Source: Escherichia phage HY02. From it: a DNA stretch of 64,000 bases. The notes beneath the pieces were generated by a model that was not told the DNA's origin, did not search any database, and was given only the letters and a program-made list of their open reading frames with translations. The stretch lies in sequence record KM092515; one strand, 5' to 3'. Position 1 is the first letter of the stretch. Every line of letters starts with the position of its first letter. Below are positions 3,696-6,833 of this stretch, piece after piece. Both the position numbers and the translations under genes were made by a program.

Positions 3696-3730
3696 CTTAA
3701 AGGGTTCTTACGAGTATCCTTTAAAGGAGC
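3696..3730 (+). repeat. conserved hairpin motif GGGTTCTTACGAGTATCC flanked by CCTTTAAAGG palindromes
   Basis: Near-identical copy at 6800-6833 (CTTCTAAGGATTCTTACGAGAGTCCTTAGAAG); degenerate copies near 4541-4570 and 5150-5230. Confidence 0.5.
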
Positions 3731-3802
3731 AGAAGACCAAATACAGCAAGTTATTTAAAATTTCAAGCCAATTCAATTTTGAAAATTTAAAACTTGGTCT
3801 GG
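3730..3802 (+). ncRNA. stem-bracketed small RNA candidate, copy C
   Basis: CAGAAGACCAA at 3730 pairs with TTGGTCTGG at 3794-3802; interior begins ATACAGCAA; AT-rich interior. Confidence 0.4.
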
Positions 3803-3815
3803 CTCAACAAATTTA

Positions 3816-3947
3816 CAGAAGACCGTTTACAGCAAAACTTAAACAATCTATTTCTCCGGTAAAGAAAAGGCGAAGGTTCGATTCCTTCACTCGGCAGATG
3901 TCGAGTTGGTGTAATGGTAGCACTTAAGATGATAAACAACGGTCTGG
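3816..3947 (+). ncRNA. stem-bracketed RNA candidate, copy D, enclosing a permuted tRNA-like module (YrlA-like architecture)
   Basis: AGACCGTT (3820-3827) pairs with AACGGTCT (3938-3945); interior begins TTTACAGCAA. Module 3872-3923 has, in this order, T-arm GAAGG-TTCGATT-CCTTC, acceptor 3' strand ACTCGGC, 4-nt loop, acceptor 5' strand GTCGAGT, then D-arm GTGT-AATGGTA-GCAC. Confidence 0.45.
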
Positions 3948-4095
3948 TAATTATCTTTGTAGATAAGTTATTAAGCTTACCTGTGAGTATGCGACCACAA
4001 AGGTGAAAGGGTAAATTCTAGATTTAAACCCAAAAAGACACATCGCTACAGACCTTAAGCAAGTCTGGGTAGCTTATCTACAAAGATAATTTAAT

Positions 4096-4171
4096 GGAAG
4101 TGTAGCAGAATGGTGATGCGGCAGACTTTTAATCTGACAGGCGATGGGTTCGAATCCCTCCACTTCTACCA
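4096..4171 (+). tRNA. tRNA-Lys (anticodon TTT)
   Basis: Acceptor GGAAGTG/CACTTCT, anticodon loop CTTTTAA, T-loop GGTTCGAATCC, encoded CCA. Confidence 0.75.
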
Positions 4172-4175
4172 ATAT

Positions 4176-4252
4176 GGTTCAGTCGCAGATAAGGTAATGC
4201 AAGGGTCTCATAAGCCCTATGAATGTGGGTTCGATTCCCATCTGAACCTCCA
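4176..4252 (+). tRNA. tRNA with CAT anticodon (Met, fMet or Ile2)
   Basis: Acceptor GGTTCAG/CTGAACC, anticodon stem AGGGT/GCCCT with loop CTCATAA, T-arm TGGG-TTCGATT-CCCA, encoded CCA. Confidence 0.75.
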
Positions 4253-4253
4253 A

Positions 4254-4329
4254 GCTGGTATAGTTAAGAAGGTTATAACACTCCCCTGATAAGGGAACAT
4301 CGGTGGTTCGATTCCACCTACCAGTACCA
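4254..4329 (+). tRNA. tRNA-Ile (anticodon GAT)
   Basis: Acceptor GCTGGTA/TACCAGT, anticodon stem TCCC/GGGA with loop CTGATAA, T-arm GGTGG-TTCGATT-CCACC, encoded CCA. Confidence 0.75.
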
Positions 4330-4344
4330 ATTTCAATAAAGTTG

Positions 4345-4373
4345 TTGACATTGAGATGTGACTACTTTATAGT
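4345..4373 (+). promoter_or_regulatory. internal sigma70-like promoter inside the tRNA array (TTGACA, 17 bp, TATAGT)
   Basis: AATAAAGTTGTTGACA at 4345-4350, 17-bp spacer, TATAGT at 4368-4373; same UP-like A-tract plus GTTGTTGACA as the 905 promoter. Confidence 0.55.
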
Positions 4374-4576
4374 AACCTTAGTTTTCGTTGCGTAGCGTCT
4401 ATTTTGCAAATTTAAAATAAATGCAAACGACAATGTTTTTCTGGCAGTAGCTTGATAGGCTAAACACCAGTGAGGTCTTCCAATCCCTCATCAAAGAATT
4501 TGGCGTACTCGCCCACGGTATGATTAATAAGGTGGGCATCTTTAAGGGCTTTCTAAGAGAGTCTTTAAAGATTAAT

Positions 4577-4653
4577 GCACCCTTAGTTCAATTGGATAGA
4601 GCAACGGTCTTCTAAATCGTTAGTTACAGGTTCGAATCCTGTAGGGTGTGCCA
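4577..4653 (+). tRNA. tRNA-Arg (anticodon TCT)
   Basis: Acceptor GCACCCT/AGGGTGT, D-arm AGTTCAATTGGATAGAGC, anticodon stem ACGGT/ATCGT with loop CTTCTAA, T-arm ACAGG-TTCGAAT-CCTGT, encoded CCA. Confidence 0.8.
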
Positions 4654-4795
4654 ATTAGTTAGCAGATTACTTAGACGACCTAAGCGGGTCTTCCTGTAGG
4701 GAGGTGGTCTGTATCTCATGTTTTCCAGAACATGTAAATAATCTGAGAAGGGGCTTTACAGTGTTGAGATAATACGGTAAGCTTCGAATTATAGT

Positions 4796-4878
4796 ATGGG
4801 ACGATGTTAAGACTCTAAGGCATGAGCAACGGCCTCCAAAACCGTTTCAAAGGGGTTCAACTCCTCCGTCCCATGCCA
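4796..4878 (+). tRNA. tRNA-Trp (anticodon CCA), atypically long D-region
   Basis: Acceptor ATGGGAC/GTCCCAT, anticodon stem ACGGC/ACCGT with loop CTCCAAA, T-loop GGTTCAACTCC, encoded CCA; 83 nt with about 7 extra nt in the D-region, so the 5' boundary is uncertain. Confidence 0.55.
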
Positions 4879-4891
4879 AAGTCTTATTAGG

Positions 4892-4981
4892 GGTAGGTAG
4901 CGGCTAATGGTAGCCAAACTGTCTTGAAAACAGTTGCCACTGTAGAGATACGGTGAGGGTTCGACTCCTTTACTTACCGCC
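4892..4981 (+). tRNA. tRNA-Ser (anticodon TGA), type II
   Basis: Acceptor GGTAGGT/ACTTACC, D-arm GGC-TAATGGTA-GCC, anticodon stem ACTGT/ACAGT with loop CTTGAAA, long variable arm, T-loop GGTTCGACTCC; CC encoded. Confidence 0.75.
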
Positions 4982-5486: not shown

Positions 5487-5561
5487 GCATCCATAGTTTA
5501 AACGGGAAAATTACAGTCTTCCAAACTGAGGTTGAGGGTTCGATTCCCTCTGGATGCTCCA
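5487..5561 (+). tRNA. tRNA-Gly (anticodon TCC)
   Basis: Acceptor GCATCCA/TGGATGC, anticodon stem CAGT/ACTG with loop CTTCCAA, T-loop GGTTCGATTCC, encoded CCA. Confidence 0.75.
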
Positions 5562-5568
5562 AATTAAT

Positions 5569-5644
5569 GCTCCTATCGTATAATTGGCTATTACGGTTGC
5601 CTTGTAAGCAACTTATCAGGGTTCGAATCCTTGTGGGAGCACCA
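5569..5644 (+). tRNA. tRNA-Thr (anticodon TGT)
   Basis: Acceptor GCTCCTA/TGGGAGC, anticodon stem GTTGC/GCAAC with loop CTTGTAA, T-loop GGTTCGAATCC, encoded CCA. Confidence 0.8.
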
Positions 5645-5741
5645 ATTTAGAGGTCAAGTGAAAGACCGCTTTGAGTCAACTGAAGACCGTAACAAATTCC
5701 ACGGAGTTGAGTTAGCGGCACAACTTCAGACCTCTTTTCAC

Positions 5742-5816
5742 ACTCGCTTAGTTTATATGGTAAAACATCACCCTTACAAGATGAAGAAAAAGGTTCAAGT
5801 CCTTTAGTGAGTACCA
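5742..5816 (+). tRNA. tRNA-Val (anticodon TAC)
   Basis: Acceptor ACTCGCT/AGTGAGT, anticodon loop CTTACAA, T-arm AAAGG-TTCAAGT-CCTTT, encoded CCA. Confidence 0.7.
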
Positions 5817-5817
5817 T

Positions 5818-5895
5818 GTTCCAGTATCCCAATTGGCAGAGGATGCAAGCTCAAACCTTGTACTAGTGACGGTTCGAATCCGTCTTGGAACACCA
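5818..5895 (+). tRNA. tRNA with anticodon CAA (Leu-type anticodon, short variable arm; isotype uncertain)
   Basis: Acceptor GTTCCAG/TTGGAAC, anticodon stem GCAAG/CTTGT with loop CTCAAAC, T-arm GACGG-TTCGAAT-CCGTC, encoded CCA; 78 nt. Confidence 0.55.
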
Positions 5896-5900
5896 ATTTT

Positions 5901-5976
5901 GCAGGATTAGTTCAAATGGATAGAGCAACAGTCTACGAAGCTGTTAATAGGGGTTCGAATCCCTTATCCTGCGCCA
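5901..5976 (+). tRNA. tRNA-Arg (anticodon ACG)
   Basis: Acceptor GCAGGAT/ATCCTGC, D-arm AGTTCAAATGGATAGAGC, anticodon stem ACAGT/GCTGT with loop CTACGAA, T-loop GGTTCGAATCC, encoded CCA. Confidence 0.8.
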
Positions 5977-5995
5977 ATTTAAAGAGGCTATTTAA

Positions 5996-6553
5996 ATGAG
6001 ATACTTGAAGTATGCTTCATGGATTTTCTTAGCTTTGCTAGAACCATTGGCAGCAATCTTAGCAGTTATCTTAGCACCTTTTGTAGTTCCATTTTACAGT
6101 GAGAAGAAAGGACACTTACCTTTTGGATTCAGATGGATGGAGACATATGACAACCTGATTGATGGTGATGAAGGTCACGTTAAAAGATGGGCTAAGATTA
6201 GAAAGATTGGTAAGCTTGGTGTCTATTTGCAGAGAGTTGGATGGCTCTGGAGAAACAAAGCTTATAACTTCTCTTACCATGTGTTAGGAAGAGATGTAAA
6301 AGATGTTACTAAGTGGAAAGGTAATATCAACGTAAGTTCTGACCCTGAAGATAATCAGACAGGTTATCTCCTAATGTGGAACAGTAATGCTTGGGGATTA
6401 TTCGCTTTTATCCCATCAATTAAAGTCTTTGGTAAACAATTCTACTGGAGAATTTATGTTGGATGGAAGCTAAAAAGTGTTGTCCCAGAAGAAAGAGCAT
6501 TCTCAAGGGAAAGAGTTATGTTGGCATTCTTTATTCATCCACTGAGAAAGTAA
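5996..6553 (+). CDS. hypothetical membrane protein embedded in the tRNA array
   Basis: 185-aa ORF with AAAGAGG RBS; strongly hydrophobic N-terminus (ASWIFLALLEPLAAILAVILAPFVVPF) and Trp-rich body; tRNAs on both sides. Confidence 0.6.
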   Translation: MRYLKYASWIFLALLEPLAAILAVILAPFVVPFYSEKKGHLPFGFRWMETYDNLIDGDEGHVKRWAKIRKIGKLGVYLQRVGWLWRNKAYNFSYHVLGRDVKDVTKWKGNINVSSDPEDNQTGYLLMWNSNAWGLFAFIPSIKVFGKQFYWRIYVGWKLKSVVPEERAFSRERVMLAFFIHPLRK

Positions 6554-6561
6554 AGATTTAA

Positions 6562-6637
6562 AGGGGATTAGTTTACAAGGTTAAAACCTCGGTCTTTGAA
6601 ATCGAAGAAGTTGGTTCAATTCCAACATCCCCCGCCA
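6562..6637 (+). tRNA. tRNA-Gln (anticodon TTG)
   Basis: Acceptor AGGGGAT/ATCCCCC (A1-C72 mismatch), anticodon stem TCGGT/ATCGA with loop CTTTGAA, T-arm GTTGG-TTCAATT-CCAAC, encoded CCA. Confidence 0.7.
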
Positions 6638-6639
6638 AT

Positions 6640-6718
6640 GCTCCATTACTCCAATTGGCAGAGAGGCCAGACTTAAAATCTGTGTTATGTATCGGTTCGA
6701 ATCCGATATGGAGTACCA
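6640..6718 (+). tRNA. tRNA with anticodon TAA (Leu-type anticodon, short variable arm; isotype uncertain)
   Basis: Acceptor GCTCCAT/ATGGAGT, anticodon loop CTTAAAA with a 4-bp stem, T-arm ATCGG-TTCGAAT-CCGAT, encoded CCA; 79 nt. Confidence 0.55.
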
Positions 6719-6723
6719 AATTT

Positions 6724-6799
6724 AGCGGTATAGCATAACTGGCAATGCAGCAGTCTCTGAAGCTGTCTTATTAAGGTTCAAATCCTTATGCCGCTGCCA
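6724..6799 (+). tRNA. tRNA-Gln (anticodon CTG)
   Basis: Acceptor AGCGGTA/TGCCGCT, anticodon stem GCAGT/GCTGT with loop CTCTGAA, T-arm TAAGG-TTCAAAT-CCTTA, encoded CCA. Confidence 0.7.
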
Positions 6800-6833
6800 C
6801 TTCTAAGGATTCTTACGAGAGTCCTTAGAAGTG
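6800..6833 (+). repeat. second copy of the GGATTCTTACGAGAGTCC hairpin motif flanked by CTTCTAAGG/CCTTAGAAG
   Basis: Direct comparison with 3696-3730; sits between tRNA-Gln and tRNA-His. Confidence 0.5.

Follow-up and report, generated by a model that had tools for sequence, protein, structure and literature searches.

The mRNAs of phage T7 and the tRNA precursor of phage T4 are processed by host RNase III, which enters long transcripts at stem-loops; at the T7 sites, the cuts part one cistron from the next, and protective hairpins remain at the 3' ends. To our knowledge, how a multikilobase phage tRNA transcript is cut into working tRNAs has been established for T4 alone. Such clusters are currently being studied as an answer to tRNA-cutting defenses. 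A passage in PMC4810235, with reference to McClain 1979 and Gurevitz & Apirion 1983, mentions that Escherichia coli RNase III takes part in T4 tRNA maturation. T4-type phages also contain PeSL (promoter-early stem-loop) cassettes, which are mobile and regulatory and combine a terminator with a promoter (PMC2839356, PMC4122927). Here, we analyzed a 64,000-nucleotide (nt) stretch of Escherichia phage HY02 (sequence record KM092515), called the window below, in which a preliminary description had pointed out an 18-nt motif, flanked by short palindromes and recurring between tRNA genes. We describe the hairpin family to which this motif belongs, its occurrence in unrelated phages, and its possible role in RNA processing.

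The motif tops a family of RNA stem-loops

Between positions 3000 and 8000, the window was 96 to 97.5% identical (megablast) to approximately 240 Felix O1-like phages (Ounavirinae, Felixounavirus); on sequence grounds, it is a Felixounavirus (Felix O1-like) genome. ARAGORN predicted 25 tRNA genes on the plus strand, from 3089 to 7913, with sigma-70-like promoters predicted at 3033 and 4345 (11/12 matches) and a terminator predicted at 8076. As the motif copies called A to D below lie inside this range, the finding belongs to the phage tRNA cluster.

The 18-nt motif, GGRTTCTTACGAGWRTCC, matched exactly at the two sites reported, 3702-3719 and 6807-6824, and no third match was found in the window even when three mismatches were allowed. 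In shuffled sequences, matches averaged 0.16, and two were reached in 2 of 100 shuffles; this comparison is partly circular since the pattern was derived from both copies. Each exact match tops an inverted repeat, named hairpin A (arms of 17 nt, 82% complementary) and hairpin D (arms of 18 nt, 94% complementary; Table 1), and what had been taken for short flanking palindromes are actually the two arms of one long stem-loop. The degenerate versions of the motif proved to be true hairpins as well, namely, B (-17.4 kcal/mol, z = -5.4) and C (-37.7 kcal/mol, z = -6.4). They are related to the exact copies, as an ortholog of D aligned with B and with the 5' arm of C at p <= 0.0005 relative to shuffles.

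A covariance model built from hairpins A and D (R1) detected three additional copies, E, F, and G, and a sequence hidden Markov model (HMM; nhmmer) added a fourth, H. All four are on the minus strand and fold into hairpins of 17 to 22 bp. The phage thus has at least eight copies, four in the tRNA cluster on the plus strand and four in intergenic regions among minus-strand genes, and the motif is not confined to the tRNA cluster as had been thought. Stems are 16 to 22 bp long, with UACG, UAAG, or UAA loops and UGUU in H. The subfamilies were joined by pairwise alignment (D ortholog versus B, and B versus E, G, and H; p < 0.0005 each, shuffles). We therefore read the motif as the tip of RNA stem-loops, probably cis-acting, that form one family, are AU- and G.U-rich, and carry UNNG or UAA loops.

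tRNA structure does not explain the motif, since ARAGORN calls no tRNA and Rfam no family there. A search of region 2500-8500 against Rfam 15 (E <= 1) yielded only subthreshold, microRNA-like chance matches on the hairpins, namely, mir-4659 (32 bits versus a gathering threshold of 92) and MIR473 (33 versus 52). The hairpin motif is also separate from the CAGAAGACC elements of the same cluster; on both points, the preliminary description was borne out. A mimic of an anticodon arm or T arm, considered because AAGGGUUC resembles the 5' half of a T arm, was rejected because of ill-fitting loop sizes and a lack of support from any tool. For Felix O1-like and phiEco32-like phages, we found no account of such hairpins in the literature searched.

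Base pairing is maintained in related phages and favors the transcribed strand

Sites A to D were all present in Felixounavirus, Suspvirus, and Mooglevirus-type contigs and records. Absence of the motif from related phages had been set beforehand as grounds for giving up the claim; the motif was found there, and the claim is not refuted on this count. In an alignment of A, D, and their orthologs, 89.8% of the cells were paired, versus 41 to 64% with slid partners, and six pairs changed on both sides. One pair at site A is G-C, G.U, or A-U among orthologs, never A/C. At site C, 9 of the 28 predicted pairs vary one-sidedly with pairing kept by G.U, 1 switches from U-A to G-C, and few are broken.

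The fold of the sense strand was more stable than that of the antisense strand in 40 of 55 unique copies. Hairpins of the B, E, F, and G types reached about -17 kcal/mol in the sense and about -6 kcal/mol in the antisense orientation, owing to three to six G.U pairs in each of them; the values for G itself were -24.6 and -15.7 kcal/mol. Every member is oriented along local transcription. Together with the maintenance of pairing, the sense-strand preference points to a structure formed by the RNA and speaks against a DNA cruciform. Of the earlier proposal, the RNA-level signal held up, with pairing kept by covariation in a manner that fits, for example, a processing site. The specialization for tRNA spacers did not, with half of the eight copies located elsewhere.

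The apical core is shared with unrelated phages

Kolesnikvirus, Kuravirus (phiEco32), and a T5-like Salmonella phage have almost the same hairpin core, GGUUCUUACGAGAGUC, on lower stems that have wholly diverged. The copy of an Erwinia Kolesnikvirus is located approximately 10 nt before tRNA-Leu(caa) (R1 score of 24.7 bits). In phiEco32 and other Kuravirus genomes, the core lies in an early intergenic region, co-oriented with the genes (28.6 bits), and in the T5-like Salmonella phage "ende," a 17-bp hairpin of the tRNA region precedes an open reading frame (ORF) by 25 nt. In the cross-lineage alignment, columns 14 to 23 (UUCUUACGAG) were invariant in Felixounavirus, Kolesnikvirus, Kuravirus, and the T5-like phage, and the outer eight pairs (columns 1 to 8/31 to 38) differed in sequence with complementarity kept. 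Ten of the 17 pairs changed on both sides, which none of 500 shuffles reached, and 89.4% of the cells were paired, versus 39 to 58% when partners were slid.

A 22-base core pattern occurred in IMG/VR in Felix-like and Kuravirus contigs only; a shorter pattern of 14 bases was swamped by chance matches and uninformative. Among 185,579 species genomes, the 22-base pattern was found in no bacterial chromosome. Its lone match was a misbinned Kuravirus contig, which rules out an origin in a host genome. This 8-kb contig (CALKAR010000070.1), binned in an "uncultured Peptococcaceae" metagenome-assembled genome, shares 98% identity with Escherichia phage 172-1, a Kuravirus. Hitchhiking with a shared gene was rejected, as the ORFs next to the hairpin in the T5-like phage and phiEco32 are unrelated to the Felix ones. 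The invariant core, the restriction of matches to phages, and the unrelated neighbors together indicate that the core is phage specific, under purifying selection, and not carried along by a shared gene.

These features might be expected if the apex, GGUUCU-UACG-AGAGUC, were the sequence-specific site of a protein other than RNase III, with the lower stem merely presenting it. Protein-recognition hairpins show the same combination of fixed columns (here 14 to 23) with outer columns (1 to 8/31 to 38) that vary yet remain complementary. The restriction of the 22-nt pattern to these phages, its absence from bacterial chromosomes, and the lack of a shared flanking gene to explain hitchhiking also agree with this idea, and the protein might come from the host, as an RNA-binding protein or nuclease on which many virulent enterobacterial phages draw. 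However, hairpins B and E to H and the T4 hairpin described below have different apices (UAAG, UAA, UGUU, and GUUA) at the same position and with the same shape. A single sequence-specific reader would therefore not cover the whole family, and no candidate protein was identified. In our view, this explanation is quite unlikely.

It is also possible, if doubtful, that the UACG hairpin, with its variable lower stem and invariant apex, represents an undescribed sequence-specific cis-regulatory RNA motif of at least three to four unrelated lineages (Ounavirinae, Kuravirus, T5-like, and perhaps T4-like virulent enterobacterial phages) through which one host reader is exploited or evaded. The reader could then be another nuclease or RNA-binding protein, or RNase III with an unrecognized apical determinant, and would come into play in the expression of tRNA clusters and early genes. 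The combination of an unchanged core and a turned-over stem in unrelated coliphages points to a common reader worth identifying.

Positions of the hairpins relative to genes, promoters, and terminators

Each cluster copy ends 0 to 5 nt upstream of a tRNA or a Y-RNA-like gene. Hairpin D, at 0 nt, occupies all 31 nt that separate tRNA-Gln(ctg) from tRNA-His and additionally pairs GCCA of the Gln 3' end with UGGC of the His 5' end; its RNA fold has a free energy of -29.6 kcal/mol (z = -9.25). Hairpin C ends 2 nt 5' of tRNA-Leu(tag), at 5238. Hairpin B lies 5 nt 5' of tRNA-Arg(tct), at 4577, and approximately 190 nt 3' of the best sigma-70-like promoter (4345-4373); in some relatives, a longer alternative hairpin occupies this site, which thus has two alleles. 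Hairpin A, with 15 to 17 pairs and a single U/U mismatch, adjoins the 5' end of the Y-RNA-like CAGAAGACC element that starts at 3730. On the minus strand, E starts within the U-tract of an intrinsic terminator behind ORF 35816-36256, G is found approximately 30 to 70 nt 3' of a TTGACA...TATACT promoter, and H is approximately 25 nt 5' of the ribosome-binding site of ORF 36259-36861.

TABLE 1 Hairpin copies and neighboring features of the window
Feature	Positions	Strand	Description
Hairpin A	3692-3729	+	UACG subfamily, CUCCCUUAAAGGGUUCU-UACG-AGUAUCCUUUAAAGGAG; R1 65.1 bits
Hairpin B	4538-4572	+	UAAG/UAA subfamily; 16 bp, no mismatch
Hairpin C	5147-5236	+	Extended; 26-nt basal stem, branched top
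Hairpin D	6796-6835	+	UACG subfamily; perfect 18-bp stem; R1 59.4 bits
Hairpin E	35751-35788	-	UAAG subfamily; R1 33.4 bits, E = 8e-7
Hairpin F	37010-37047	-	Near-duplicate of E; R1 23.6 bits; nhmmer E = 1.2e-6; z = -3.7
Hairpin G	37137-37175	-	22 bp; R1 15.1 bits; -25.1 kcal/mol, z = -6.0
Hairpin H	36883-36920 (approximate)	-	UGUU loop; nhmmer E = 0.0013; z = -3.1
Doubtful weak member	1015-1045	+	UCUUAAAAGCCUUUUAAGAGGUCUUAUAAGA; just 5' of ORF 1055-1426; nhmmer E = 0.05; fold z = -1.3, no better than shuffles
Short GC hairpin	3674-3694	+	GAGAGGGC-UAUUUA-GCCCCUC; directly 5' of hairpin A
Ro-like gene	1508-2923	+	471-aa protein; directly 5' of the cluster
Hairpin after Ro-like gene	2934-2965	+	12 bp, AAAGGGUAUUGA...UUGAUACCCUUU
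Promoter-like site	2942-2970		Overlaps the preceding hairpin
First CAGAAGACC element	3256-3335	+	
Second CAGAAGACC element	3424-3487	+	
Third CAGAAGACC element	3730-3803	+	
Fourth CAGAAGACC element	3814-3948	+	Permuted tRNA-like module
Long-range stem	3949-4091	+	Near perfect, 22 to 25 bp; -46 kcal/mol, z = -5.7
tRNA-like sequence	4798-4872	+	Rfam match weak (23 bits, E = 0.43)
tRNA-Thr/tRNA-Val spacer	5645-5741	+	97 nt; -29.9 kcal/mol, z = -3.6
tRNA-His gene	6830-6906	+	C73 and CCA encoded

Stems of the form AAAGG...CCUUUAAA with a short U-run, and the overlap of E with the U-tract of a true terminator, might suggest weak intrinsic terminators or pause or attenuator signals for host RNA polymerase. 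We consider this most implausible. The terminator scan calls none of the copies, on which grounds a terminator function was rejected; no copy then runs into five or more U residues, and D is located between two tRNA genes that need to be cotranscribed.

The hairpins might instead remain uncut, as structural punctuation that blocks 3'-to-5' exonucleases or scanning by RNase E. After an RNase P cut or termination, the upstream RNA would end in a protective stem-loop, and the tRNAs would fold independently. Cutting by RNase P 2 to 5 nt downstream would turn B and C into the 3' termini of non-tRNA RNAs, leaders or spacers, of 190 to 255 nt; the locations of G near the 5' end of an early transcript and of E behind a terminator, as well as the combination of a stable UNCG-type loop with long stems, would suit a stabilizer. 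However, D as a perfect 31-nt hairpin trailer would hamper 3' maturation of tRNA-Gln unless it was cut, and the invariant apex would be left without explanation. We regard hairpins that escape cleavage altogether as unlikely.

A hairpin similar to the Felix copies precedes the T4 tRNA cluster

Long duplexes before tRNA genes suggest RNase III, and the leader of the T4 tRNA cluster was therefore chosen for comparison. This leader reads ...CAAGGGUUCUUGUUAGAGAGCCUUUGUUAAUAAU followed by tRNA-Gln, and a hairpin, AAGGGUUCUU-GUUA-GAGAGCCUUU, is located 9 nt before the tRNA gene. Its alignment scores against the family were reached by 10 to 33 of 5,442 control windows (p of approximately 0.002 to 0.004; shuffle p = 0.0005 to 0.005). 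A 19-base pattern searched in IMG/VR occurred only in Felix-like contigs and one T4-like contig. T4-like relatives keep the leader hairpin, with changes in the loop and one changed pair.

Hairpins are located at the ends of a gene cassette

Relative to phage EC6, the window contains 1,392 extra nt (35744-37135, minus strand). One junction of this cassette falls at the 3' edge of G, the other within or adjacent to E, with an overlap of approximately 9 nt; the cassette comprises hairpins F and H, a terminator, and the ORFs 36259-36861 (200 aa) and 35816-36256 (146 aa), neither of which has a Pfam match. This is the one clear case of indel junctions at hairpins. The other indels relative to EC6 lie at tRNA borders, so that the hairpins are not the sole points of recombination.

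Such junctions would fit an element that acts mainly in DNA, a repeated quasi-palindrome that serves as a PeSL-like recombination module or a small mobile palindrome, of which the RNA hairpin is a by-product. E and F are near duplicates, and the number of copies varies among relatives. The tRNAs beside A, B, and C change among relatives while the hairpins stay, and the two alleles at site B can be read in the same way. Moreover, the outer stem of D has two mismatches in every sampled relative, and in the window AAAUG is replaced by AGAAG (6822-6829), which turns both mismatches into Watson-Crick pairs. Palindrome-perfecting changes of this kind are typical of template-switch "quasipalindrome correction." This suggests that the changes in D were templated in replication rather than arising as two independent point mutations. 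PeSL stems of the form A3-4G3-loop-C3T3-4 also look alike (PMC4122927). In contrast, the many G.U pairs cause the complementary strand to fold poorly, the orientation of the copies follows transcription, most of them have no adjacent sigma-70 promoter and U-tract, and the indels of the tRNA cluster relative to EC6 are at tRNA borders and not at hairpins. As invariance across lineages additionally needs purifying selection on a function, a role mainly at the DNA level appears improbable.

On the minus strand, hairpins E and F are each followed by a G/U-rich, C-poor tract of 30 to 65 nt (GGUAGGGUGAAGUAAGGUAAGGUUUGG...; approximately 35670-35750 and 36930-37010). The opposite strand of these tracts is C-rich and G-poor, like a Rho-utilization site. 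After each tract comes a small hairpin whose stem covaries between the copies (GGCAG/CUGCC versus GGUAG/CUACC).

Other RNA elements and genes near the hairpins

The gene directly 5' of the tRNA cluster codes for a protein with DUF2828/DUF7788 (PHROG 850, "RNA-binding protein"), the entire length of which can be aligned with mycobacteriophage genes labeled "Ro-like RNA binding protein." According to a preprint, gp130 of phage Bas63 has a Ro60-like structure (PMC11482910); by its position directly 5' of tRNA genes, it is probably the equivalent of this gene. The four CAGAAGACC...GGUCUGG elements all close with a bulged helix, CAG-AAGACC/GGUCU-GG. The fourth one combines an anticodon-like arm, a T arm, a loop-capped acceptor, and a D arm, like bacterial YrlA Y RNAs (PMC4201824). 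Rfam did not detect the CAGAAGACC elements, which are probably phage Y RNAs. The spacer between tRNA-Thr and tRNA-Val contains CUGAAGACC...CAGACC and may be a fifth, divergent Y-like element. A Ro60-like protein was considered as a reader of the hairpins and rejected: Kolesnikvirus has the hairpin, and neither its examined locus nor its protein matches showed a Ro-like gene; phiEco32-like and T4-like phages have the hairpin too, again with no Ro-like match seen for them. The hairpins also lack the GNCGAA-like motif of the bulged terminal helix by which Y RNAs are bound by Ro60.

The short GC hairpin directly 5' of A vies with it for its outermost pairs and is kept while the upstream tRNA varies (Asp alleles or none). 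The tRNA-Asp gene found in most relatives between tRNA-Tyr and this small hairpin is missing in the window (3668/3669). At least three distinct tRNA-Asp alleles occur at this site among relatives, and phage SeKF_63 also has an HNH endonuclease gene at the equivalent position.

Between the fourth CAGAAGACC element and tRNA-Lys(ttt), a long-range stem with arms AAUUAUCUUUGUAGAUAAGUUA and UAGCUUAUCUACAAAGAUAAUU surrounds approximately 100 nt of structured RNA. It includes a small CAGACC...GUCUGG hairpin and ends 4 nt before the tRNA gene. Phages Shy and SeKF_63 keep the element, which looks like an rRNA-type processing stem around an unassigned small RNA.

The tRNA-His gene next to D has a 7-bp acceptor stem from G6831. 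Position -1 is A in the window and U in relatives, so that the G-1 needed by bacterial histidyl-tRNA synthetase is not encoded; the gene is labeled tRNA-Pseudo or tRNA-OTHER in several GenBank annotations. Another sequence, not called by ARAGORN, has what appears to be a CCA (Trp) anticodon loop as well as a CCA end; it may be a decayed tRNA-Trp, a gene that is intact in Kolesnikvirus.

Discussion

Among the five explanations that we considered, we place first, tentatively and with somewhat less than even confidence, the proposal that the hairpins are cis-acting processing or stability stem-loops, probably entry sites of host RNase III. Cleavage and the identity of the enzyme are what we infer from the conservation, covariation, strand bias, positions, and phage occurrence of the hairpins. 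They would be transcribed within long polycistronic RNAs at the boundaries between RNA units, which in the early region of the minus strand would place them between a terminator, a promoter, and the next cistron. In general, cleavage by RNase III depends on rnc and leaves 2-nt 3' overhangs, and its substrates lack a G-C or C-G antideterminant at positions 2 and 4 of the proximal box. RNase III, which is double-strand specific, would enter at the stems, cut in the lower stem, and separate the neighboring RNAs. After such a cut, RNase P would have a short 5' leader to remove and exonucleases a short 3' trailer, as for D, where the trailer would remain on tRNA-Gln and the leader on tRNA-His. Alternatively, the cut could generate hairpin-capped ends that stabilize mRNAs. 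Because the copies resemble each other, they might also serve as short homologies where gene cassettes come or go, and such repeats at one or more cassette junctions may help explain the swapping of small gene modules.

For E. coli RNase III, a helix of approximately 11 bp is the minimum and 22 bp the ideal, and cellular substrates have up to approximately 20 bp (PMC3867540). The Felix stems, at 16 to 22 bp and with the sense strand favored, fall within this range, and the copies are found before tRNA or Y-like genes or between ORFs, terminators, and promoters. In the UACG-type copies, the segment 7 to 10 bp from the loop is A-U-rich, and positions 8 to 10 are A-U or U-A only in nearly all of them. 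The core is common to Ounavirinae, Kuravirus, and a T5-like phage without a shared neighbor protein and is missing from bacterial genomes, and a host factor is likelier than a phage factor.

Several observations weigh against a role of RNase III. We know of no requirement of the E. coli enzyme for a given loop or apical sequence, and RNase III therefore fails to explain why 10 to 16 apical nt are invariant in four lineages. Copies A and D are nearly strand symmetric, and co-orientation amounts to approximately two independent clusters in the genome rather than eight events. The T4 leader hairpin differs from the family by its shorter stem of 10 to 11 bp and its GUUA loop. It was missed by both the family HMM (nhmmer) and the covariance model (cmsearch), and its link to the family consists of pairwise tests at one prechosen site. 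Searches with R1 yielded no T7 site, and an HMM of the T7 sites detected no Felix hairpin in the window (best E = 1.3).

Felix O1-like phages are widely used in therapy and typing, and the hairpins are the obvious candidates for the punctuation of their tRNA transcripts. They offer exact, testable sites for RNase mapping.

The T4 leader hairpin speaks for RNase III as a precedent and is similar to the Felix copies in several respects. Its 5' arm, AAGGGUUCUU, is that of A and D, and its 3' arm, GAGAGCCUUU, is close to those of B and D; it is on the transcribed strand, a few nt 5' of a tRNA, from which it is separated by an AU-rich linker (GUUAAUAAU in T4, GAUUAAU or GAUUUAAU in Felix). In contrast to the Felix cluster, which has several copies in addition to those elsewhere in the genome, T4 has a single one at the start of its cluster. 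Pragai and Apirion reportedly placed an RNase III cut within the T4 leader in 1981.

With the T7 RNase III sites (R0.3 to R18.5), the Felix hairpins share their nature as paralogous intergenic hairpins of polycistronic transcripts, co-oriented with them and often near promoters. The T7 sites differ by an internal loop and another consensus (CUCAAGGUC...GGCCUUUAUGAUUA), whereas the Felix stems are continuous duplexes that would be cut on both strands. A supposed likeness to T7 site R1.1 was wrong, as neither model R1 nor the T7-site HMM gave a match.

PeSLs are likewise conserved intergenic stem-loops, some of the form AAAGGG-loop-CCCTTT, that are found at indel junctions of close relatives and could mediate modular shuffling. 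Unlike them, most Felix copies have no U-tract or adjacent promoter, and four are inside a tRNA operon. Coupling to a promoter or terminator of the PeSL type is lacking in A, C, and D; closest to it come G, 3' of a promoter, and E, beside a terminator and approximately 110 nt from a promoter. Elsewhere in the window, the hairpin that follows the Ro-like gene has a TTGACA -35 hexamer in its loop and arm and resembles a PeSL-type terminator/promoter composite. Klebsiella phage KP13-16 has an analogous hairpin with TTGACA inside, after its own Ro-like gene (7451-7479).

By analogy, the Felix hairpins would be of the same kind as the intergenic processing stem-loops of T7 and T4, and their conservation across phage lineages is the unusual part.

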